Shown here: in pieces, positions 3,400 to 24,045 of the stretch
Layout: the number at the start of each line of letters is the position of its first letter
How positions within the stretch are numbered: position 1 is the stretch's first letter
Source: Candidatus Omnitrophota bacterium
GTDB lineage: Bacteria > Omnitrophota > Gorgyraeia > Zapsychrales > Zapsychraceae
DNA length: 24,823 nt
NCBI GenBank assembly: GCA_015233405.1
Contig: JADFXT010000022.1
Span: 1 to 24,823, forward strand
Direction of reading: 5' to 3'
Notes under the pieces: generated by a model
The model's input: only the letters and a program-made list of their open reading frames with translations
Databases searched by the model: none
Told to the model about the DNA's origin: nothing
Made by a program: the position numbers and the translations under genes

Positions 3400-5991
3400 A
3401 TGCGAAAAAGTTTTAGCGGTATTTTATTTGTATCTTTGATATTTTTTATTTGCGGGTACAGTTTTGCCGCTGAGGTGCAGTCCTCAAAACAGATTTTGGA
3501 TAATGGCCTGACCGTTTTGATTAGTGAGATCCCGACGAGTCCGGTCGTGAGCGTGTTTGGTTTAGTCAAAACAGGGGCAGCGACCGAAGGCCGATTCTTA
3601 GGTTCCGGTATTTCGCATTTGGTCGAGCACATGCTTTTTAAAGGGACACAAAACAGAAAAGCCGGTGAGATCGCCTCCGCAATCCAAGCCGTCGGAGGGA
3701 CCATTAATGCCTCAACGGACAAAGACTATACCATATATACTATTACCGTTCCGTATCAGAAATTTGATGTGGCATTGGATATTTTGGCGGATATGCTGCA
3801 AAACGCCTCATTCAACGTCGAGGAATTCAAGAAAGAAAAAGAAGTCATTCTGTCTGAGATCCGTATGCATGGCGATGATCCGGACAGGAAATTAAATGAC
3901 TTGGTATTCGAGAATGATTATGTTCGGCATCCTTACCGTATTCCGACGATCGGTTATGAGCAGCTGTTTTCTTCTCTAAAGCAGGGCAACGCAACGAAAT
4001 ATTATCGAATGATGTACGTTCCCAATAATATGGTTATTTCAATCGCTGGACATGTGGATAGCCAAGAGGTTTCTTCAAAAGTCGCAAATCAGTTTAAAGG
4101 GTTTTTACGGAAGTTCGACGTCGTGCGCAATCTTCCCCAAGAGCCTCAGCAAATAGCCCCGCGGTATTATGAAGAACAATACCCCACACCGCTGGCGCGG
4201 TTTTCCATGACGTTTCAGGGCGTGAATATTCTCCATGAAGATTTGTATGCGCTTGATGTGCTCGCGTCCATTTTAGGCGAAGGAGAAAGCTCAAGGCTCT
4301 TTTTAAATGTCTATAAGAAAAAGCAGCTTGTCTATTCTATCTCGGCGTATGATTACACGCCCATGGACCAGGGTTATTTTGGTGTGGATGCTGTTTTGGA
4401 AGAAAAAAATATTCCTGCGGCCATCGACGCCATTTGGGAGGAAATCAAAGAAATTCAGGCCAAAGGCGTCTTAGCCCCGGACATGGAAAAGGCCAAGAAA
4501 CAGGTTTTGGCGAAATACATTATGGGGCGGCAAACGGCTGATCAAGTCGCTTACACCCAGGCTATCGACGAGGCCTTTAGCGGCGATTATCGTTTTTCCG
4601 AAAAATATGCCAAAGCCGTCCAGGATATCAAGGCGGAAGATATTAAGCGAGTCGCACAGCGGTATTTAAAAGACAGCCGTCTGACAACGGTTGTTTTAAA
4701 ACCAAAGAAAGAAGCCCCTGTTGCTGTTTTAGGAGAAAAAAAGGCTGCCAGTGAACCGGCTATCCAGAAAGTCCAGTTCAGTAACGGCGTTACGGTTCTT
4801 ATCAGGGAAAACCATGCGTTTCCCGTCGTGTCTATGGATGTAGTGATGCAGGCCGGAACGCTTCAAGAGCCAGAGGCGCTTAATGGAATATCCAATTTGA
4901 CGGCGTTGATGTTGACTCAAGGAACGACGTCCAAAAACGCGCAAAAGATCGCCGGGATTATTGATTCTTTAGGGATGAGCTTGTCGGGATTTTCAGGAAG
5001 AAATAGTTTTGGGGTCACAATGGAATGTCTCTCTGCGGATTTTAAGCCGGCCTTGGATTTGTTGGAAGATGTAGTTAAGAATCCCTCATTCCCCGATGAT
5101 GAGCTTTTAAAAAATAAGGAAACGGTCAAGGCGGACATTAAATTAAAAGAAGACAGTATTTCGCAGATGACCGGGCAGGCTTTAAGACAGACGCTTTTTG
5201 TCAAACATCCGCTACGGTTTGATATCGAAGGGACCATTCCATCAATCGATAAAATGACAAGGAAGGATATCGTCGGATTTTATGACCAGTTTGCCGTTGG
5301 CGCTAATATGGTCGTATCTGTTTTTGGTGATATCAATGCGCAAGATGTTTTAAAGGACCTTCAAAAAAGGTTTGGGAATATAAGCTCTAAGAAAGTGGAA
5401 TTAAAAAGTTTTACTGAAGAGCCGCCGACCAAGGAGCGCGAAAAAGCCCTGACTATGAAAAAAGAACAGGCGATGTTCATGCTTGGGTTTCAAGGACCAG
5501 GGTTTCATGACCAGGACAAATATGCATTAGAGGTCTTAACCGGGATCTTAGGTTCATCGTTTGACGGACGGATGTTCCGGAATATCCGCGACCAATTAGG
5601 CAAGGCCTATTCGTTAGGTGGCAGTTATACTCCTGGTCCGGATATGGGATTTATTTATTTTTATGTTCTGACGACTGAGAAGGATATCTCTAAGGTAAAA
5701 GAATTGATGGCTGCTGAAATCAAGAACCTTCAGGACAAAGACGTTTCCGCCGAGGAGCTCAACGAGATAAAGACTTATTTGAAAGGGACCTTTGTGGCCG
5801 GATTGGAAACGAATGCGTCTTTGGGCCTTAAGGTCAGTTTGGATGAGCTTTATGGGTTAGGTTTTGGGGATTATCAAAATTATGCGAAGGCCATTGACCG
5901 GGTGACGGCGCAGGACATTCGCCGCTTGGCGTTACGATATCTGGATTTGAATAAAAGCGCTTTGGTCATTACGACTCCGTCGGCGCATTGA
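3400..5991 (+). CDS. Secreted tandem M16-family (pitrilysin/PqqL-like) zinc metallopeptidase; active N-terminal unit plus a second, probably non-catalytic M16 unit
   Basis: Signal peptide MRKSFSGILFVSLIFFICGYSFAAE. Inverzincin motif HLVEHMLFKGT (HxxEH) with downstream E-rich region. A second M16-like unit begins near residue 480 (HAFPVVSMDVVMQAGT…). RBS AAAAGGAAA before the ATG at 3400; the track's GTG start at 3376 is less likely. Confidence 0.85.
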   Translation: MRKSFSGILFVSLIFFICGYSFAAEVQSSKQILDNGLTVLISEIPTSPVVSVFGLVKTGAATEGRFLGSGISHLVEHMLFKGTQNRKAGEIASAIQAVGGTINASTDKDYTIYTITVPYQKFDVALDILADMLQNASFNVEEFKKEKEVILSEIRMHGDDPDRKLNDLVFENDYVRHPYRIPTIGYEQLFSSLKQGNATKYYRMMYVPNNMVISIAGHVDSQEVSSKVANQFKGFLRKFDVVRNLPQEPQQIAPRYYEEQYPTPLARFSMTFQGVNILHEDLYALDVLASILGEGESSRLFLNVYKKKQLVYSISAYDYTPMDQGYFGVDAVLEEKNIPAAIDAIWEEIKEIQAKGVLAPDMEKAKKQVLAKYIMGRQTADQVAYTQAIDEAFSGDYRFSEKYAKAVQDIKAEDIKRVAQRYLKDSRLTTVVLKPKKEAPVAVLGEKKAASEPAIQKVQFSNGVTVLIRENHAFPVVSMDVVMQAGTLQEPEALNGISNLTALMLTQGTTSKNAQKIAGIIDSLGMSLSGFSGRNSFGVTMECLSADFKPALDLLEDVVKNPSFPDDELLKNKETVKADIKLKEDSISQMTGQALRQTLFVKHPLRFDIEGTIPSIDKMTRKDIVGFYDQFAVGANMVVSVFGDINAQDVLKDLQKRFGNISSKKVELKSFTEEPPTKEREKALTMKKEQAMFMLGFQGPGFHDQDKYALEVLTGILGSSFDGRMFRNIRDQLGKAYSLGGSYTPGPDMGFIYFYVLTTEKDISKVKELMAAEIKNLQDKDVSAEELNEIKTYLKGTFVAGLETNASLGLKVSLDELYGLGFGDYQNYAKAIDRVTAQDIRRLALRYLDLNKSALVITTPSAH

Positions 5992-6116: not shown

Positions 6117-7478
6117 ATGAAAACAACCAGATTTTTTGAATTAGAAGAAGTTTTGGTCGACCGTTTGCTGGGGCATATGGCTCTTCTTCAGCCCCAATCG
6201 GAAAGAGAAGACTTAGTCGAGCTCGCCTTGATAAAGTTGCTAAAAGAAGGCGGATTTGAAGACCTGCAAAGCGATCTGGCGGATGATTTTCACCGCAAAA
6301 CCTTTATCCGAAAATTTCTTTCTTACGGGATTGTGGCGGATGTCTTATGTGATGTTTTTGTGGAAGATTTGACGGTCAACAATTTAAAGCCGATCTATAT
6401 TCATCATAGCCAAAAGGGATTTATATCGACGGGGAAGAGTTTTTCCAGCCAAAGGGAAATGAACCTTTTTATCAAGAAGCTTTTGTTGTTCTCCGGCCGC
6501 AGCAAGTTTTCTAAGATCATGAATTTGGAGTTGCCGAATTTGGAAGGCCGCGTCAATATCGCCCTTTCAGCCTTTGGCCCACAGGTCACTATCACCAAAG
6601 CCAAGGTTTCCCCGTTAAGCATTATCGACCTTATCCGGCAGAAGAGTTTGACGCATGAAGTCGCCGCGCAGTTATGGATTTATATTGAAGGGTTATCTAT
6701 CCGGCCTGCGAACATTATTCTCGCCGGAGGGCCTGGCGTCGGAAAAACAACGCTACTCAATGCCTTGTTTAGTTTTATTCCGACTTCGGACCGCATGGTC
6801 ATTATTGAAGATACGCTAGAGTTAAATACATTTTTAGATGACAGTTGCTCGCGTCTTGAGAGCGATGAAGATGTGTCGTTGGCTGATTTGGTAAAAAACA
6901 GTTTGCGTATGCGTCCGGAACGCATTATCGTCGGTGAAGTCCGTGGTGCCGAGGCCAGAGACATGATCACGGCTTGTAACGTCGGAAAATATTGCATGGG
7001 GACCATTCACGCTTTGACATCTCGAGAAGCCATTATGCGTCTACAGAATGAGCCGATGAATATCCCGGAAATGTTGATCAATTTGATCGATGTCTTTATC
7101 GTTTTAAAAAGATACCATGTCAAAGACAGAGTTTTTAGAGTCATTGATGAAATCAGCGAAACAAATGCCATGGAGAATGTCAAAATTTTGCTGTCAACCG
7201 TCTATAAATATGATTACGACACTATGAATGTTAGGATGATAAATCCCAGCACCATTTATCGTGATAAATTATGCCAGCAATCCGGAATGACGCCGGTGGA
7301 AATTATCAAAGAGCATAAGCTGCGGACTTTTCTTTTAAAACAGCTGGACGAGCGAAATATTATTACGATGAAAGAGATCAGCGCTTTTTGCCAGGCGTAT
7401 CATCGTGAGCCGCAGCAGACCGTTGCGGCATTAGGATTTGACCGTAACGATCTTTGGAAAAGGATCACTGTCGGGTAA
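6117..7478 (+). CDS. Type II/IV secretion-system family ATPase (CpaF/TadA-VirB11-FlaI-like) with N-terminal domain and ~100-aa C-terminal extension
   Basis: Walker A LAGGPGVGKTTLLNAL. The family-specific Walker B/Asp box is MVIIEDTLEL, and the His box is RIIVGEVRGAEARDMITACNVGKYCMGTIHA. No pilin, platform (TadB/C, GspF) or secretin genes are anywhere in the window. Confidence 0.8.
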   Translation: MKTTRFFELEEVLVDRLLGHMALLQPQSEREDLVELALIKLLKEGGFEDLQSDLADDFHRKTFIRKFLSYGIVADVLCDVFVEDLTVNNLKPIYIHHSQKGFISTGKSFSSQREMNLFIKKLLLFSGRSKFSKIMNLELPNLEGRVNIALSAFGPQVTITKAKVSPLSIIDLIRQKSLTHEVAAQLWIYIEGLSIRPANIILAGGPGVGKTTLLNALFSFIPTSDRMVIIEDTLELNTFLDDSCSRLESDEDVSLADLVKNSLRMRPERIIVGEVRGAEARDMITACNVGKYCMGTIHALTSREAIMRLQNEPMNIPEMLINLIDVFIVLKRYHVKDRVFRVIDEISETNAMENVKILLSTVYKYDYDTMNVRMINPSTIYRDKLCQQSGMTPVEIIKEHKLRTFLLKQLDERNIITMKEISAFCQAYHREPQQTVAALGFDRNDLWKRITVG

Positions 7479-7563
7479 TATTGCTTATCGTTGGAACAGT
7501 TTTAATGGACGGCGGGAAATTTTAATGGTATAAATGTTGTTTCATTTTGCGCCTGGTAGCGAG

Positions 7564-7640
7564 CCTTGGTTGTTTTTCCAAGGCGAAGTCCTGACGAATT
7601 TTGTCAGGACTCAACGAGGCCTGGCGATTTTTGCCAGGAC
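7564..7640. repeat. Array of three tandem hairpins with 7-8-nt T-rich loops
   Basis: Seen directly: CCTTGG-TTGTTTTT-CCAAGG (7564-7583), GTCCTGAC-GAATTTT-GTCAGGAC (7588-7610) and GCCTGGC-GATTTTT-GCCAGG (7619-7638). Units 2 and 3 are about 85% identical. No U-tract follows the stems, so these are not classic terminators. Confidence 0.4.
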
Positions 7641-7771
7641 GAAGTCTCAGCGCGAAGCGATGGGATTGGATAGTTGAAAATAAATGTATTTTGGCGCCCG
7701 TCCCGCGACTCGCTTGCGCTCGCGTGGGACAACGGCGCATATTTTTCTGGAAAAAATTTTAGTTGTAATAT

Positions 7772-7845
7772 GCGCCCGTAGCTCAATTGGATAGAGCATC
7801 AGCCTACGGAGCTGAGGGTTACAAGTTCGAATCTTGTCGGGCGCG
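7772..7845 (+). tRNA. tRNA-Arg(ACG)
   Basis: Manual cloverleaf: acceptor GCGCCCG/CGGGCGC, D-arm GCTC-AATTGGATA-GAGC, anticodon stem TCAGC/GCTGA with loop CTACGGA (anticodon ACG, G37), T-arm ACAAG-TTCGAAT-CTTGT, discriminator G. No encoded CCA. Confidence 0.85.
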
Positions 7846-7847
7846 TT

Positions 7848-8052
7848 TGCCGAGGACGAAATGTCCGAAGGCATGGTTGAGCATTAGCGAAATCATAATC
7901 ACCACAACGGTTTTCCGTTGAAAGCTGAAAATGATTGGCTCCAAGTTTGTCCGGGAAATCCTGCGAAGTGTAAGCGAAGCAGGATCGGGCGTTAACAAGT
8001 TCTCCCGTTTTTCTTGAAAGAATGAAAAGGAAACGGGATTTCGCCTTCGGCT
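7848..8052 (+). other. 205-bp highly structured non-coding spacer between tRNA-Arg and a copy of its 3' end
   Basis: Several local hairpins: GGAC-GAAAT-GTCC, AACGG-TTTTC-CGTT, CCTGC…GCAGG and GCC-TTCG-GGC. No ORF. Identity unknown; SRP/6S/RNase P signatures were looked for and not found convincingly. Confidence 0.3.
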
Positions 8053-8074
8053 CAAGAATCATGTCGGGCGCGTT
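8053..8074 (+). repeat. Degenerate direct duplicate of the tRNA-Arg 3' end (T-loop 3' half plus acceptor 3' strand)
   Basis: CAAGAATCATGTCGGGCGCGTT versus tRNA CAAGTTCGAATCTTGTCGGGCGCGTT (7822-7847): 18/19 identity over GAATC(T/A)TGTCGGGCGCGTT. Immediately followed by a perfect 10-bp-stem hairpin GAAATTCTGC-TGGG-GCAGAATTTC (8075-8098). Confidence 0.5.
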
Positions 8075-8202
8075 GAAATTCTGCTGGGGCAGAATTTCGG
8101 AGCAATCGAAAATTAAGAATTGAGATTAGACAAAAGAATTTCTCGATTGCGGCCAATTTTCGATTATTGATTTTCAAAGAACCTGCCTTTACGTTTTTCT
8201 AA

Positions 8203-16757: not shown

Positions 16758-18212
16758 ATGTTTAAATGTATCTTTAGAAAAGACCATATTTACAAATGTT
16801 TGTTAAACGGAGAGTGGGTCGAGTCTAAATCCGGGAAGACGAACAAGATTTTTTCTCCGGCGGACGGCTCTTTCTTAGGCGAACTTCAGGCTATGGGCCT
16901 TGAGGAGGCAGACCGGTTTATTTTGACTGCCAAGGCGGCGCAAAAATCATGGGGAGATACTGCCGTTAATGAGCGCGCTCAAATCCTTCATAAGGCCGCT
17001 GAAATCCTCGACAAACAAAAGGACATCATCGCCAATGTGATCGTCAAAGAGATCGCCAAGAACAAGAAGACAGCCTTGTCTGAGGTCGAGCGAAGCGTAG
17101 ATTATATCCATTTTACCGCCGAGGAAGGAATGAGGGTTTCCGGCGAGAACTTATCATCCGATGTTTTTCCGGGATTTAATAATAAAAAGTTGTCCATTAT
17201 CAGCCGCGTTCCGTTAGGGGTCGTTTTGGCGGTCTCACCTTTTAATTATCCGGTCAATCTTTCGGCATCAAAAATCGCGCCCGCTTTAATCGCCGGCAAT
17301 GCGGTCGTTTTTAAGCCGCCGACCCAAGGAGCTATTAGCGCGTTATATCTGGCGCGTGTTTTTTGTGAGGCTGGAATCCCGGCGGGCGTTTTAAATGTTA
17401 TTACCGGCCAGGGACGGGAAATCGGCGATTATTTGGTCAAACATCCAGATATTAATATGGTCAATTTTACCGGCAGTAGCTCCGTCGGCCGGCATATTGC
17501 AGAAATTGCTGGAATGAAGCCGTTACTCTTAGAGCTAGGCGGCAAGGACGCGGCCATTGTCCTTGAGGATGCAGACATTTCTTTTGCAGCAAAGAATATC
17601 GTTTCCGGTGCGTATTCTTATTCCGGCCAAAGATGCACCGCCGTTAAGCGCATTTTGGTTCTTGAGTCTATCGCGGACAATCTGGTCGACGAAATGCTTC
17701 CATTGGTGAAAAAATTAAGCGTTGGGAATCCGGCGGACGATGCGGACATTACTCCGCTTATCTCTGATGCGGCTGCGGATTTCGTCCAAGGGATCATAGA
17801 TGATGCCAGACAAAAAGGGGCGAAGCTTTTGTTCGGCGATCAAAGAGAGAAGAATCTAATCTATCCAACCTTGTTTGACCATGTGACTGTTGATATGCGC
17901 TTGGCGTGGGAAGAACCGTTTGGCCCGGTCTTACCGATCATCCGTGTGAAGTCTATTGAGGAAGCCATTGATATTTCCAATCGTTCGGAATACGGGTTAC
18001 AGGCTTGCATTTTTACGCAGGACATTGACAACGCTTTTGACATTGCTTCGAAGCTCGACGTCGGAACGGTTCAGATCAATAATAAATCAGAACGTGGGCC
18101 GGACCATTTTCCGTTTGGCGGAGTCAAGAGCTCCGGCTTAGGCACGCAAGGCATTCGTTATTCTATCGAGGCGATGTCACGGTCCAAGGCGGTTGTAATT
18201 AATTTTAAGTGA
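16758..18212 (+). CDS. gapN: NADP-dependent non-phosphorylating glyceraldehyde-3-phosphate dehydrogenase (ALDH superfamily)
   Basis: FNYPVNLSASKIAPALIAGNAVVFKPPTQGAIS, MKPLLLELGGKDAAIVLEDADI and YSGQRCTAVKRILVLES match the GapN family very closely (catalytic Cys in GQRCTA, Glu in ELGGKD). Confidence 0.85.
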   Translation: MFKCIFRKDHIYKCLLNGEWVESKSGKTNKIFSPADGSFLGELQAMGLEEADRFILTAKAAQKSWGDTAVNERAQILHKAAEILDKQKDIIANVIVKEIAKNKKTALSEVERSVDYIHFTAEEGMRVSGENLSSDVFPGFNNKKLSIISRVPLGVVLAVSPFNYPVNLSASKIAPALIAGNAVVFKPPTQGAISALYLARVFCEAGIPAGVLNVITGQGREIGDYLVKHPDINMVNFTGSSSVGRHIAEIAGMKPLLLELGGKDAAIVLEDADISFAAKNIVSGAYSYSGQRCTAVKRILVLESIADNLVDEMLPLVKKLSVGNPADDADITPLISDAAADFVQGIIDDARQKGAKLLFGDQREKNLIYPTLFDHVTVDMRLAWEEPFGPVLPIIRVKSIEEAIDISNRSEYGLQACIFTQDIDNAFDIASKLDVGTVQINNKSERGPDHFPFGGVKSSGLGTQGIRYSIEAMSRSKAVVINFK

Positions 18213-18232
18213 CAAGATTTTTCTAAAAGAGG

Positions 18233-18260
18233 TTGATTTGCTTTCTCGGTCCACTATAAT
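18233..18260 (+). promoter_or_regulatory. Sigma70-like promoter for tex: TTGATT -35, 16-nt spacer, TATAAT -10
   Basis: TTGATT at 18233-18238 and TATAAT at 18255-18260, about 70 nt upstream of the tex ATG. Confidence 0.4.
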
Positions 18261-18331
18261 CTCACCGAAAGTAAAAATTCTAGTATTTATCAGGCAAATC
18301 ATTATCATCCGCACAAGGATCCATTTACAAA

Positions 18332-20467
18332 ATGACCATCAATTACAGTGATAAGATCGCCAAGGAATTAAACTTACTTGGCGCCCAGGTTTCTTCGACG
18401 ATCAGCCTGCTTGAAGAAGGCGGGACCGTGCCTTTTATTTCCCGTTACCGTAAAGAAGCGACGGGAAACCTAAATGAAGTTTCCATTACAAGTATTCGCG
18501 ATCGTTTAAAGCAGCTTCAAGAACTTGATAAGCGGCGCGAGGCGATCCTTACGAGCATCCAGGAGCAAGGCAAACTCACCGACGAGCTTAAAGGTAAAAT
18601 TCTTAAGGCCGAAACAATGGCGGTGTTGGAAGATATCTATTTGCCTTACCGGCCTAAACGTCGGACGCGCGCGACCGTTGCCAAGGAAAAGGGACTAGAG
18701 CCTTTGGCGCAAAAGATTTTTGAGCAGACGGGCATCGATGTAGAAAAAGAGGCAAAGGCTTACGTTGACTCGGAGAAGAAGGTCTCTTCCGTCGAGGAAG
18801 CCTTAGCCGGCGCCAGGGACATTATCGCTGAGTGGATCAATGAAAGTCAGGATGCGCGCGCTAAGCTGCGCTTGCTCTTCGAGAAACAGGCGGTCATCTA
18901 TTCTAAGGTGCTTAAAGGCAAAGACGTCGACGGTATTAAATATAAGGATTATTTTGATTGGCACGAACAGGCATCTTCCGCACCGTCGCATCGGATCTTG
19001 GCCGTGCGCCGAGGAGAAAAAGAAGGCTTTTTAAGTGTGGCCGTTTATCCGACGGAAGATGATGCTTTGCGTATTTTAGCGGAGATGTTTATTAAGGGTA
19101 AGAAAGAGGATTCCCGTCAAGTCGCTTTGGCCGCAGATGATAGTTATAAGCGTTTGTTGTCCTTGTCTTTGGAGACAGAGCTTGCCGTCCAGCTTAAGAA
19201 GCGTGCGGACAAGGAAGCGATTGAGATTTTTAAAAGTAATTTGCGTCAACTTTTGATGGCGCCGCCTTTGGGTCAGAAAAATATCCTCGCCGTTGACCCA
19301 GGCTTACGAACGGGGTGTAAGGTCGTGTGCCTGGATAAGCAGGGCAAGCTTTTGATCAACCAGACAGCGTATCTCGTCGGGTCTGACCGGCAAAAAGAGG
19401 AAGCCGCGGATTGTATTAAAACGCTTTGTAAAAAATATGAGATCGAGATCATTGCCATTGGAAACGGCACGGCCAGCCGTGAGACAGAAAGTTTTGTTAA
19501 AAGTTTGGGGCTTTCTAAAAATATCCACGTCATCGTCGTCAGTGAAAGCGGCGCGTCCGTTTATTCCGCATCCGACGTGGCCCGCGAAGAATTTCCAGAT
19601 TATGATGTCACCGTGCGCGGAGCGGTTTCTATCGGCCGGCGTTTGATGGACCCGTTGGCCGAACTCGTGAAAATAGACCCCAAGGCCATTGGGGTGGGGC
19701 AATATCAGCATGACGTAGACCAGACGTTGTTAAAGGACAGCCTCGACGATGTAGTTATTAGCTGTGTTAATCAAGTCGGTGTGGAGATCAATACCGCCAG
19801 CAAACAGCTTTTGACCTATGTTTCCGGCTTAGGTCCGTCGCGCGCCAAGGCGATCGTAGAATATCGTAATCAGAATGGACCATTTTCCTCGAGAAAAGAA
19901 TTTACCAAGGTCCCCGGTTTAGGGCCAAAGGCCATTGAGCAGGCGGCCGGGTTTTTGCGTATCAAAGATGGGAAGAATCCTTTGGACGCGAGCGCCGTCC
20001 ATCCCGAGACCTATGAGATCGTCGAGCGGATGGCCAAAGACCTGGGGATTTCGGTCGATAAATTAATTAATAGCGACGCATTGGTCAATAAAATTGACCT
20101 CAATAAATATGTGACGGCGACGATCGGCTTGCCGACGCTTATGGATATTAAAAAAGAACTCGTCAAGCCTGGCCGCGACCCGCGGCAACCGTTCGAACTG
20201 TTTAGTTTTAAGGATGGGATCGAAAAACTCGAGGATTTGAAAGAAGGGATGAAGCTTCCGGGGGTCGTCACTAACATCACTGCCTTTGGTGTTTTCGTCG
20301 ATATTGGCGTTCATAACGACGGGTTGGTGCATATCAGCGAGCTTTCCAAACGGTTTGTCAAAAACCCTCACGATATCGTCAAGGTCCATCAGAAAGTTCA
20401 GGTGACGGTATTATCCATCGACTTACAACGCAAACGCATTGCACTTAGCACAAAAGACAGCCTATAA
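18332..20467 (+). CDS. tex: Transcription accessory protein Tex (YqgF/RuvC-like, HhH and S1 domains)
   Basis: 711 aa. N-terminal HTH/Tex region, YqgF-like nuclease fold (ILAVDPGLRTGCKVV), HhH motifs (GLGPSRAKAIVEYR, VPGLGPKAIEQAAGF), and C-terminal S1 domain (GMKLPGVVTNITAFGVFVDIGVHNDGLVHISEL). Confidence 0.85.
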   Translation: MTINYSDKIAKELNLLGAQVSSTISLLEEGGTVPFISRYRKEATGNLNEVSITSIRDRLKQLQELDKRREAILTSIQEQGKLTDELKGKILKAETMAVLEDIYLPYRPKRRTRATVAKEKGLEPLAQKIFEQTGIDVEKEAKAYVDSEKKVSSVEEALAGARDIIAEWINESQDARAKLRLLFEKQAVIYSKVLKGKDVDGIKYKDYFDWHEQASSAPSHRILAVRRGEKEGFLSVAVYPTEDDALRILAEMFIKGKKEDSRQVALAADDSYKRLLSLSLETELAVQLKKRADKEAIEIFKSNLRQLLMAPPLGQKNILAVDPGLRTGCKVVCLDKQGKLLINQTAYLVGSDRQKEEAADCIKTLCKKYEIEIIAIGNGTASRETESFVKSLGLSKNIHVIVVSESGASVYSASDVAREEFPDYDVTVRGAVSIGRRLMDPLAELVKIDPKAIGVGQYQHDVDQTLLKDSLDDVVISCVNQVGVEINTASKQLLTYVSGLGPSRAKAIVEYRNQNGPFSSRKEFTKVPGLGPKAIEQAAGFLRIKDGKNPLDASAVHPETYEIVERMAKDLGISVDKLINSDALVNKIDLNKYVTATIGLPTLMDIKKELVKPGRDPRQPFELFSFKDGIEKLEDLKEGMKLPGVVTNITAFGVFVDIGVHNDGLVHISELSKRFVKNPHDIVKVHQKVQVTVLSIDLQRKRIALSTKDSL

Positions 20468-20478
20468 TCCTTGTTTTT

Positions 20479-20503
20479 TGTCATTCCCGCGAAAGCGGGA
20501 ATC
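20479..20503. repeat. Left terminal hairpin repeat of the GIY-YIG mini-element: TGTCA-TTCCCGC-GAAA-GCGGGAA-TC
   Basis: 8-bp stem, GAAA loop, preceded by TGTCA. Sits between the tex stop and the GIY-YIG RBS (TAGGAG). Confidence 0.6.
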
Positions 20504-20515
20504 TAGGAGCCTTAA

Positions 20516-20800
20516 ATGTCTTATTATGTTTACATTTTAGCCAGCCAGCGGAATGGAACATTGTACATTGGTGTAACAAAGGATTTATTAAGGCGGGTTT
20601 ATGAGCATAAGAATAATCTTGTTAAAGGTTTTACTGAAAAATACCGCATTAATTTGTTAGTTTATTTTGAAAAGTTGGATAATGTAGGAGAGGCAATAAC
20701 AAGAGAGAAACAAATCAAAAAATGGAACCGTGATTGGAAGATTGAAATGATTGAGAAAAACAATCCTCAGTGGAAAGATTTATATGAGGATTTGGTTTAA
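20516..20800 (+). CDS. Small stand-alone GIY-YIG (URI-domain, COG2827-type) nuclease
   Basis: 94 aa. YYVYILAS…GTLYIGVT…L..R..EH…E…REKQIKKWNR is the canonical GIY-YIG catalytic module with nothing else attached. Confidence 0.8.
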   Translation: MSYYVYILASQRNGTLYIGVTKDLLRRVYEHKNNLVKGFTEKYRINLLVYFEKLDNVGEAITREKQIKKWNRDWKIEMIEKNNPQWKDLYEDLV

Positions 20801-20807
20801 ATAACTG

Positions 20808-20832
20808 GATCCCCGCTTTCGCGGGGATGACA
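20808..20832. repeat. Right terminal hairpin repeat, inverted relative to the left copy: GA-TCCCCGC-TTTC-GCGGGGA-TGACA
   Basis: It is the reverse complement of the left copy except for two positions (T/C and A/G) that change in a base-pair-compensating way (ATTCCCGC/GCGGGAAT versus ATCCCCGC/GCGGGGAT). A half-copy GGGAATGACA follows at 20846-20855. Confidence 0.6.
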
Positions 20833-20968
20833 GTGAAGCTGGATGGGAATGACAAGAAAAATAGAATAAGGCCCTTTTAATCAGTTATTGTATTGACAAT
20901 GAAATTCAGACCAGCTAACATAAAAATTGTTTCATTTGTTTGTCATTCGCAATCATATATTACATCAT

Positions 20969-21046
20969 TGTCATCCCCGAATGTCTTAGTCGGGGAACCA
21001 TAGGGTTTTAATATGGATTCCCGATAAAAGATTTCGGGAATGACAG
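20969..21046. repeat. Two further copies of the same hairpin-repeat family in the dnaX upstream region
   Basis: TGTCAT-TCCCCGA-atgtcttag-TCGGGGA (20969-20996) and ATTCCCGA-taaaagat-TCGGGAAT-GACAGTGAG (21017-21050). They share the TCCCG/CGGGA stem and the flanking (A)TGACA(GTGA) with the terminal repeats. A half-copy TTGTCATTCGC sits at 20940-20950. Confidence 0.5.
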
Positions 21047-21092
21047 TGAGATGGAATGTTGTTGACAGTTGTATCAAGGGAAATTCAATATT

Positions 21093-23380: not shown

Positions 23381-23455
23381 TTTGTAACATCTGTTCTTTG
23401 AAGATATTTATAAAATCTATTCCCCTGTAGCTCAGCTGGTAGAGCAAGTGGCTGT

Positions 23456-24045
23456 TCGCGAGTTCTCGCTAAAGCGGGACGAGCGTCAGGAGTTAAAGGA
23501 GGCATCAACGGGATGGATAAGCGTCATTATAAGGATCGTCGTGAATATCTCATCAAAGCTGTTCATGCACGTCGGAAGAAGGTGCGTGAGATGGCTGTCG
23601 CCTATAAGGGTGGCAAATGTGAGAAATGTGGGTACGATCAATGTATTGATGCTTTAGATTTCCACCATGTTGATCCAGCTCAAAAAGACTTTAACATTTC
23701 TAGCAAAGGATATACGCGTAGCTGGGAAAGGGTTAAGGTCGAGTTGGATAAGTGCAAGATGTTATGCGCTAATTGTCACCGAGAACTTCACGCACAAAGT
23801 TAGCAGCCTCCATTAGGAATAATGGAGTGACAAGCGGGCTAAGTCAGGAAAATCCTAGACGACATCATTGGGACGACCGAAAGGAAGTCCTGAGGTAAGT
23901 TGAAGGACAATCCTGAGCTAGCAGTCGATTCGGCGTAAGCTGAAATTGATAGGCAAGTGCAGAGACTTTACACCCGCCACCCTAAGGTAATCAAATGCCT
24001 GGGTGAAGAGAAAGTCCGACTCTTCAGGTAACTGAAGTCAGATCG
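23456..24045 (+). mobile_element. Group I self-splicing intron (IC3-like core, about 243 nt at 23803..24045) with an ORF-bearing P1 loop
   Basis: The 5' exon ends …GGCUGU and the internal guide GCAGCC (23803-23808) is exactly complementary with a U·G at the splice site. A P2 hairpin CUCCAUUAGGAAUAAUGGAG follows. Core blocks CAAUCCUGAGC, GUGCAGAGACU, CCACCCUAAGG and AGAGAAAGUCC resemble (from memory) the Azoarcus tRNA-Ile and Anabaena tRNA-Leu introns. Terminal G at 24045. Confidence 0.75.
23513..23803 (+). CDS. Intron-encoded HNH homing endonuclease (96 aa)
   Basis: HNH/zinc motifs CEKCG…DFHHVDP…N…CANCH. Strong RBS AAAGGAGG (23495-23502). The stop TAG abuts the intron internal guide sequence. 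Confidence 0.75.
   Translation: MDKRHYKDRREYLIKAVHARRKKVREMAVAYKGGKCEKCGYDQCIDALDFHHVDPAQKDFNISSKGYTRSWERVKVELDKCKMLCANCHRELHAQS

Follow-up and report, generated by a model that had tools for sequence, protein, structure and literature searches.

Why should the last nucleotides of a transfer RNA (tRNA) gene be repeated a short way downstream, just ahead of the gene for the enzyme whose substrate that tRNA is? The question is raised by a contig of a Candidatus Omnitrophota metagenome-assembled genome (MAG), which in its entirety (24,823 nt) is called the window hereafter. There, tRNA-Arg(ACG) is followed by a non-coding unit of 227 nt (7848-8074), made of a 208-nt body and of a second copy of the 19-nt tRNA tail, and then by tadA, which encodes the tRNA adenosine(34) deaminase. 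The answer that we favour, with a probability of roughly one half, is that this unit is a lineage-specific remnant of a local duplication of the tRNA unit, of the type known in Escherichia coli as tRNA-linked repeats (TLRs), which would be transcribed together with its neighbours and processed.

A tRNA tail repeated ahead of tadA

The central observation is simple. The last 19 nt of tRNA-Arg (7829-7847, GAATCTTGTCGGGCGCGTT) recur in the same orientation at 8056-8074 (GAATCATGTCGGGCGCGTT), where they form the end of the insert, with 18/19 positions matching. If up to three mismatches are allowed, the 19-mer has two sites in the whole window, which none of 100 dinucleotide shuffles produced, and the tail repeat is far above chance level. 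A first-pass annotation of this DNA had described a tRNA-Arg(ACG) gene with a near-exact copy of its 3' end downstream, and on both counts it was right, since the gene is called by ARAGORN and Rfam alike and the copy is the one just described; the segment between the two copies (7848-8055) measures 208 nt and not the 205 bp given there. A tail repeat was also looked for on the tadA side, for tRNA-Ser(GCU), and none was found in the window. The parts of the locus are the following.

6117..7478, + strand: gene for an ATPase of the CpaF/T2SSE family (Pfam T2SSE, 1e-29)
7479..7680, + strand: extra, lineage-specific DNA of ~200 nt 5' of the tRNA, with three tandem hairpins and two motif copies
7693..7741, + strand: GC-rich stem-loop that begins with GCGCCCGT, then TATTTTT (predicted fold -26.5 kcal/mol, z = -2.46)
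7772..7845, + strand: tRNA-Arg(ACG) gene, CCA not encoded (ARAGORN 7771-7846; Rfam tRNA, 68.4 bits)
7829..7847, + strand: left-hand 19-mer of the direct repeat, spanning T-loop G57 through the discriminator and the TT after it
7848..8055, + strand: non-coding body of the tRNA-linked repeat unit, 208 nt, GC 46.6%
7990..8002, + strand: fragment GTTAACAAGTTC, like the end of the tRNA variable loop plus the 5' strand of the T-stem plus TTC
8008..8055, + strand: segment like the upstream flank of the tRNA (TTTTTCTTGAAAGAAT) plus the tRNA 5' end, abutting the right 19-mer
8056..8074, + strand: right-hand 19-mer of the direct repeat, differing by a T-to-A substitution at 8061
8075..8098, + strand: perfect 10-bp hairpin GAAATTCTGC-TGGG-GCAGAATTTC, directly 3' of the right repeat and without a U-run after it
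8203..8679, + strand: tadA, tRNA adenosine(34) deaminase, substrate tRNA-Arg(ACG) (Pfam MafB19-deam, 1.8e-44); the protein is 100% identical to NCBI MBF0523245.1
8793..8884, + strand: tRNA-Ser(GCU), the conserved downstream member of the block

Is there anything in the unit that could be recognised as a gene? On the + strand there is no open reading frame (ORF) of at least 60 aa between tRNA and tadA, which agrees with the earlier statement that the segment has none, although that statement overlooks two antisense ORFs, at 7799-8062 (87 aa) and 7819-8055 (78 aa). Of these two, the 87-aa frame was scanned, as were further antisense ORFs of 75 and 72 aa, with no Pfam or NCBIfam match. The first-pass annotation had proposed a search of all Rfam families, which we carried out over 7400-8300 with Rfam 15 (at gathering thresholds and at E<=10). 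Only the tRNA is found beyond chance; the other hits are three chance-level matches to microRNA or small RNA (sRNA) families, on the 10-bp hairpin, none of which reaches E = 1. A transfer-messenger RNA, permuted or not, was rejected as a candidate, ARAGORN finding none. Homologues of 7479-7770 and 7847-8202, that is, of the DNA on either side of the tRNA, were sought with blastn and nhmmer in 164 related loci and none was found.

The locus in relatives

What the locus looked like before the insert can be read from its relatives. Loci were collected via TadA from species-representative genomes and JGI metagenomes, and further ones via the TadA and T2SSE homologues of closer relatives. The order tRNA-Arg(ACG), tadA, tRNA-Ser is kept across Omnitrophota and extends to Scalindua/Planctomycetota, loci with the tRNA directly 5' of tadA including those that we numbered L003, L005, L013, L022, L086 and L089. 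On the other side, the CpaF/T2SSE gene is the upstream neighbour in a conserved block (M16 peptidase - T2SSE - tRNA-Arg - tadA), whose order is the same in L081, L082, L083, L084 and L173. The gap between tRNA-Arg(ACG) and tadA is at most 200 nt in 39 of the 49 loci with the tRNA upstream, often -5 to +20 nt. Such a gap is too short for a promoter of its own, so that, judging from spacing, the tRNA and the gene of its deaminase must share a transcript in these compact loci. The remaining 10 gaps span 208 to 1813 nt; the five of 1.2-1.8 kb that were examined hold one long ORF each, a PAS-type histidine kinase in four of the five, and no repeat of the tRNA tail.

The relatives that have the complete gene order of the window are compact around the tRNA, with ~25 nt before it and 8 nt after it in L081, 25 and 39 nt in L173, and ~20 and 73 nt in L082, while L083, whose T2SSE is 82% identical, has 76 nt before it. 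When the end of the L083 contig (4878-4974) is compared with the window, it aligns only to 7681-7798 (score 42.75, reached by 0/500 shuffles), the stem-loop included. Taken together, the compact relatives and an L083 flank limited to 7681-7798 argue that the window lineage gained ~200 nt upstream of the tRNA (7479-7680, the hairpin array) and 227 nt downstream (7848-8074). As for the comparison of orthologous loci that had been proposed at the outset (empty site versus larger island), L081, L082 and L173, with 8-73 nt to tadA, look like empty sites, and none of 60 related loci has a larger island at tRNA-Arg(ACG). Among the 51-60 related tRNA-Arg loci in which a tail repeat could be looked for, it is present in the window and, weakly, in L012, only.

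Several side observations concern the same site in relatives. In L012 (2831-2898), the last 10 nt of the tRNA (GCTGGGCGCA) recur 58 nt downstream, at the end of a hairpin that looks, on its 5' side, like the start of the tRNA. In L082 (2958-2982) there is a degenerate tail, TGTCGGGACTGGGCGCGTT, that resembles the window-type tail and not the tail of L082's own tRNA. By their resemblance, these remnants suggest that tails have been duplicated locally more than once within the clade. In the closest relatives the tRNA lies ~20-25 nt after the T2SSE stop codon, and may there punctuate a longer messenger RNA (mRNA). Finally, the L083 contig ends within the tRNA-Arg gene (4947-4974) and the L177 contig ~100 nt after the T2SSE gene, which hints at assembly breaks caused by repeats or strain variation at the locus.

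How the unit may have arisen

The scenario that we favour starts from a compact ancestral locus (T2SSE gene, tRNA-Arg(ACG), tadA) in which the tRNA would have lain inside the transcription unit of its own editing enzyme. From there, (i) the tRNA unit, that is, flank, tRNA and trailer, would have been partly duplicated in tandem in this lineage, by unequal or illegitimate recombination or by replication slippage, (ii) the downstream copy would have decayed and lost ~40 internal nt, leaving a 227-nt non-coding unit that still ends with the tRNA 19-mer, (iii) this unit would be co-transcribed with the tRNA and tadA by read-through from the tRNA, (iv) the kept copy of the tRNA end would probably still be a processing site of the 3'-end type, with 7848-8074 released as a by-product RNA and (v) the tadA message would then begin at the 10-bp hairpin, which could stabilise its 5' end.

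The duplication itself is suggested by what precedes the right copy of the repeat. Within 8008-8074, flank, tRNA 5' end and tRNA 3' end stand in the correct order, 8040-8055 (TTCGCCTTCGGCTCAA) being preceded by a copy of the A/T-rich flank and matching the tRNA 5' end (TGCGCCCGTAGCTCAA) at 11/16 positions. The spacing of the two repeats is 266 nt for the flank versus 227 nt for the tail, which implies that ~39 nt would have been deleted inside the second copy, and the whole arrangement is what a copy of the tRNA would look like after losing ~40 nt from its interior. The flank and tRNA 5' end of L083 also align to 7977-8055 (2/500 shuffles do as well), and a global alignment of 7631-7828 with 7848-8055, from which the 19-mer was excluded, scores 15.25 against 8.4 +/- 2.8 for dinucleotide shuffles, 16/1000 of which reach that value. 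Faint as this collinear match is, it suggests that the tRNA unit was duplicated and that the duplicate decayed and lost an internal stretch. The other side of the tRNA carries its own trace, in that two upstream motif copies (7574-7592 and 7630-7648) resemble the trailer of the tRNA (7847-7865), and an expansion of both sides with a shared trailer motif is not expected from an element that inserts at a tRNA 3' end.

That the copy of the tail might belong to a second, diverged tRNA gene was the possibility that the first-pass annotation had set against its own idea of integration, and there are weak signs of it: the 11/16 likeness to the tRNA 5' end, the alignment at 7977-8055 and an 8-mer, ACAAGTTC, that lies directly 5' of the repeat in the real tRNA and recurs at 7995-8002. 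The 8-mer allows an alternative parse, marginally supported, in which ACAAGTTC at 7995-8002 would be followed by a 53-nt insertion in the T-loop. As a free local match, the longer fragment GTTAACAAGTTC is equalled in 72-165/1000 shuffles and is not significant, being notable only for its exact adjacency in the tRNA. A second tRNA called by ARAGORN with -ps70 and introns allowed was judged not credible.

A number of points weigh against a duplication origin. Outside the 19-mer, the similarity is low and changes with the way it is scored, z running from -1.1 to 2.4 over five scoring schemes. Neither a second tRNA nor a pseudo-tRNA is found by ARAGORN (default, -ps and -ps80) or by Infernal with Rfam (one hit at E<=10), no pseudo-tRNA appears after in-silico removal of the 53 nt at 8003-8055, and Tandem Repeats Finder reports no tandem repeat at the locus. 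The 19-mer is 95% identical versus ~60% elsewhere, which would require gene conversion, selection or another event of later date. The GC content of the body (46.6%), above that of other intergenic DNA, fits poorly with an old spacer that decays neutrally, and the unit is known from one genome only. As to transcription, that the unit is co-transcribed and processed is probable, on the basis of the compact tRNA-tadA spacing in relatives. That relatives whose proteins are 72-84% identical do not conserve the unit at all speaks for any function of it being recent and dispensable; it is lineage-specific, unconserved and probably neutral.

Hairpins on both sides of the tRNA

How structured is the insert? 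Perfect hairpins are denser between 7479 and 8202 than in the window as a whole (9.7 versus 2.4 per kb), and most of the individual structures in the first-pass annotation are there as described. The three tandem hairpins with T-rich loops, all perfect, lie within 7563-7638: 7563-7584 (7 bp, loop TTGTTTTT), 7587-7611 (9 bp, loop GAATTTT) and 7620-7638 (6 bp, loop GATTTTT). The GC-rich stem-loop said to share the start of the tRNA is found at 7693-7741 and does begin with GCGCCCGT, as the tRNA does; L083 has an orthologous hairpin, and the stem-loop, by its predicted fold, looks like a terminator or a processing hairpin just 5' of the tRNA. The perfect 10-bp hairpin right after the copy is present at 8075-8098, and a terminator scan made no call there. 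By contrast, the GC-rich stem with a TTCG tetraloop (GCCTTCGGC, 8043-8051) has at most three pairs and is absent from every predicted fold. Scans of the interval from tRNA to tadA for sigma-70-like promoters or terminators found none, although the promoters of this phylum may differ from that consensus.

The description of the segment as highly structured has to be toned down. For 7847-8074, z is -2.53 (+ strand) and -2.45 (- strand), which amounts to moderate structure, and the value of -4.26 is obtained only if the trailing 10-bp hairpin is included. The predicted fold of the body is multi-branched, with closing helices 7870-7882/8050-8065 and 7887-7894/8036-8043, and the T-to-A change in the right copy adds a pair to the first of these. 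The GC content of the body compares with 29-41% in other intergenic regions. We also thought of a mimic of the TadA substrate (a UACG loop) ahead of tadA but gave it up, since, judging from the sequence and its predicted fold, the only TACG (~8189-8192) does not lie in a tRNA-like loop of 7 nt.

Other explanations

The rival that survives best, possible but doubtful in our eyes, is that the two copies are the attL/attR scar left when a tyrosine-integrase element inserted site-specifically at the tRNA-Arg 3' end, with crossover in the T-loop. The end brought by the element would complete the gene at 7829-7847, the displaced host end would be the copy at 8056-8074 and most of the element would have been deleted later; what is left could be a non-autonomous remnant, mobilisable in cis. 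It is this explanation that the first-pass annotation had in mind when it spoke of a signature of integration, and part of it stands, for the tail repeat does bracket the insert and the site is empty in L081, L082 and L173. A 3'-end fragment that lies downstream in the same orientation and reaches the end of the tRNA is the very signature by which Islander recognises islands, and the T-loop, where the repeat starts, is one of the crossover subsites named for them (PMC4383910). High identity of the 19-mer around DNA that looks unrelated is typical of att repeats, the GC of the body departs from that of other intergenic DNA, and the break of the L083 contig (82% identical) inside tRNA-Arg leaves room for strain variation at the site.

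What the same explanation lacks is an element. No scanned ORF of the window matches a Pfam integrase family, and no integrase or mobility gene was seen (most ORFs of at least 90 aa were scanned). The interval of 227 bp is far below the size of an island, Islander rejecting candidates that are shorter than 2 kb or have no integrase (PMC4383910). None of the 60 related tRNA-Arg(ACG) loci carries an island, and the five large gaps examined have no tail repeat. Nor is there any likeness to mobile DNA: phage and plasmid collections, searched with blastn in distant mode, match the tRNA alone, viral contigs have no match to three exact 20-24-mers from the unit, and the five matches to a 17-mer of the tRNA tail, in GC-rich DNA with neither a tRNA nor any extension, are chance. 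Lastly, a scar leaves the upstream expansion and its shared motif unexplained.

Could the unit be kept for what it does? It might be a structured sRNA of ~228 nt, released from a joint transcript of tRNA-Arg and tadA because its end imitates that of the tRNA, or a structured 5' leader that adjusts tadA expression relative to the substrate tRNA; we consider both rather unlikely. In favour of this, the unit almost certainly sits in a transcribed region, its predicted fold beats those of shuffled sequences (z = -2.5; -4.3 once the trailing hairpin is counted in), it is richer in GC than other intergenic regions and the T-to-A change gives it one more pair in the closing helix 7870-7882/8050-8065. 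Precedents exist among the TLRs of E. coli, where RrA, RrB and RrF are sRNAs made by processing, with Hfq and CsrA as binding partners, and where RttR is expressed (PMC8144298, PMC3318445). Against this, no homologue is present in ~170 related loci, among them relatives at 72-84% protein identity that have compact spacers, no Rfam family matches beyond chance at E<=10, the - strand folds equally well, no anticodon-loop mimic of the TadA substrate is found and most TLRs of E. coli are themselves without known function. The earlier suggestion of an sRNA finds no support in conservation or in Rfam.

Far less probable is a miniature inverted-repeat transposable element of ~197 nt (7869-8065) that landed beside the tRNA, its tRNA-like right end being a coincidence or a matter of target preference. 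Imperfect terminal inverted repeats (7870-7894 / 8036-8065) do form the closing helices of the fold, and relatives lack the body. However, 7869-8065 is not bordered by a target-site duplication, and the 18/19 match to the exact end of the tRNA and 2 nt past it would go unexplained. The search for other copies that had been proposed found no second copy of the body in the 24.8-kb window or in the ~170 related loci that were fetched.

An assembly artefact of a mixed-strain metagenome bin is the least credible of all, for although the same NCBI submission has a T2SSE and a TadA of 79-84% identity on another contig (MBF0523330/332 vs MBF0523245), so that the bin may mix populations, the exact stretches shared are just 5 and 13 nt, too short for de Bruijn mis-joins at usual k, two such populations are too divergent to co-assemble and the 208-nt body is unique sequence with continuous flanks.

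Other features of the contig and its bin

The second contig just mentioned (12,714 nt) appears to carry paralogues or alleles of T2SSE (MBF0523330.1, 84% identical to that of the window) and TadA (MBF0523332.1, 79%), with one annotated protein between them, and the MAG may mix two related populations or hold two copies of the locus.

Elsewhere in the window, at 23421-24089, a group I intron of ~590 nt interrupts the anticodon loop of a gene like tRNA-Asn(GUU). Rfam Intron_gpI covers 23779-24038, the intron bears an HNH-like ORF (23513-23803, motif CANCHRELH), and joining 23455 to 24046 in silico restores a 76-nt tRNA-Asn that ends in CCA, while ARAGORN misses the native gene. To our knowledge, no bacterial group I intron has been described in tRNA-Asn.

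A GIY-YIG ORF (20516-20800, 94 aa) is flanked by related hairpins within 20483-21041. They are found at 20483-20502 (ATTCCCGC-GAAA-GCGGGAAT), 20809-20828 (ATCCCCGC-TTTC-GCGGGGAT), 20974-20996 and 21017-21041, and ATGACAGTGA comes after the second and the last. A small GIY-YIG gene is also present in L084, beside tadA. The ORF with its hairpins may, judging from this arrangement, be a small mobile or repeat-associated module.

Between tRNA-Ser(GCU) and dnaX-recR, the window holds ~12 kb (8885-21068) with genes for a DUF3192/BamE-like protein, an FRG-domain protein, a 631-aa protein without Pfam match, SPFH, UbiA, an aldehyde dehydrogenase and Tex. In L081 and L173, nothing but tRNA-Ser and a single small ORF is found at this place. 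This stretch is not an obvious island, there being no repeat of the tRNA-Ser tail and no integrase found.

Significance

If the unit is what we think it is, it would be an independent instance of a TLR-type repeat, in a distant uncultured phylum, with the same repeat length and the same starting point in the T-loop. Recurrence across phyla suggests that the pattern is a general by-product, or exploitation, of duplication or recombination at tRNA genes rather than a peculiarity of enterobacteria. In Omnitrophota and some Planctomycetota there is the added twist that whatever is inserted between tRNA-Arg(ACG) and tadA sits inside the transcription unit of a substrate and its enzyme. The practical weight of this single locus is small.

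A bolder proposal, which we regard as improbable, is that TLR-type units arise repeatedly in distant phyla by one specific mechanism, each being a non-coding body closed by a copy of the final ~19 nt of the tRNA before it, from the T-loop onwards. The mechanism may be (i) a tiny non-autonomous element that recombines at the T-loop of tRNA genes or (ii) selection for a second processing site of the tRNA-end type, and if the latter were true, what is seen in Omnitrophota would be a processed RNA linking the output of tRNA-Arg(ACG) with the expression of its editing enzyme TadA.

Comparison with known systems

Three kinds of known systems invite comparison with the locus. Islands integrated into tRNA genes share with it an intact tRNA followed by a displaced 3' fragment, in direct orientation and starting in the T-loop, and an empty site in relatives. 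They differ from it in having an integrase and cargo and in measuring at least 2 kb, whereas the interval of the window is 227 bp, no related element was found and the upstream side of the tRNA is expanded as well. Tandem tRNA duplicates and pseudogenes would account for flank, 5' end and 3' end standing in order in 8008-8074 and for the ~39-nt deletion, although ARAGORN and Infernal see no tRNA here and the similarity outside the 19-mer is marginal.

The closest likeness is to the TLRs of E. coli, a precedent that the first-pass annotation did not mention. These have been known since 1978, and we know of no agreed explanation for their origin. In E. coli K-12, the 19-mer AATCCTTCCCCCACCACCA of tyrT/tyrV recurs with a period of 178 nt after tyrV, and once between tyrT and tyrV, while the corresponding 22-mer is found only in true tRNAs, from which it follows that the repeat starts in the T-loop, at A58. 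The repeat of the window likewise starts inside the T-loop, at G57. A side observation on the same E. coli locus (NC_000913.3 1285500-1287800, our L172) is that each 178-nt unit has CTTCGACCAAGGTTCGA ~66 nt upstream of the 19-mer, resembling the variable loop and the 5' side of the T-arm of tRNA-Tyr (CTTCGAAGGTTCGA), and by this resemblance the E. coli unit also looks like a tRNA 3' half broken in the T-loop.

In E. coli, the last 18-19 bp of a TLR are identical to the 3' end of the upstream tRNA or ribosomal RNA (rRNA) (PMC8144298). According to Stenum et al. (PMC8144298), no function is known for most TLRs, and the repeat is believed to direct processing by RNases. The examples are the 178-bp rtT/RttR units after tyrV and rrA/rrB/rrF after 5S rRNA, with one to five units per locus, and one in the window. 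In both systems a non-coding unit of ~100-230 nt lies directly 3' of the tRNA, in the same orientation and, in the window presumably too, in the same transcription unit; it closes with a copy of the 18-19 nt that end the tRNA (near-identical and not identical in the window, at 18/19, with one mismatch); and its body is rich in hairpins, that of E. coli having a faint likeness to the tRNA of its own (14/1000 shuffles). The differences are as plain. There is no relationship in sequence or in Rfam and no homology to TLR/rtT units of E. coli; the phylum is another one; CCA is not encoded, so that the repeat ends at the discriminator plus TT instead of CCA; the unit lies between tRNA and tadA and not at the end of an operon; and it is unconserved among close relatives, whereas rrA/B/F are conserved across Enterobacterales. 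What Omnitrophota have placed between tRNA-Arg(ACG) and its deaminase gene in this lineage would therefore be, as far as sequence comparison can tell, an analogue of TLRs in a distant phylum and not a member of that family by descent.

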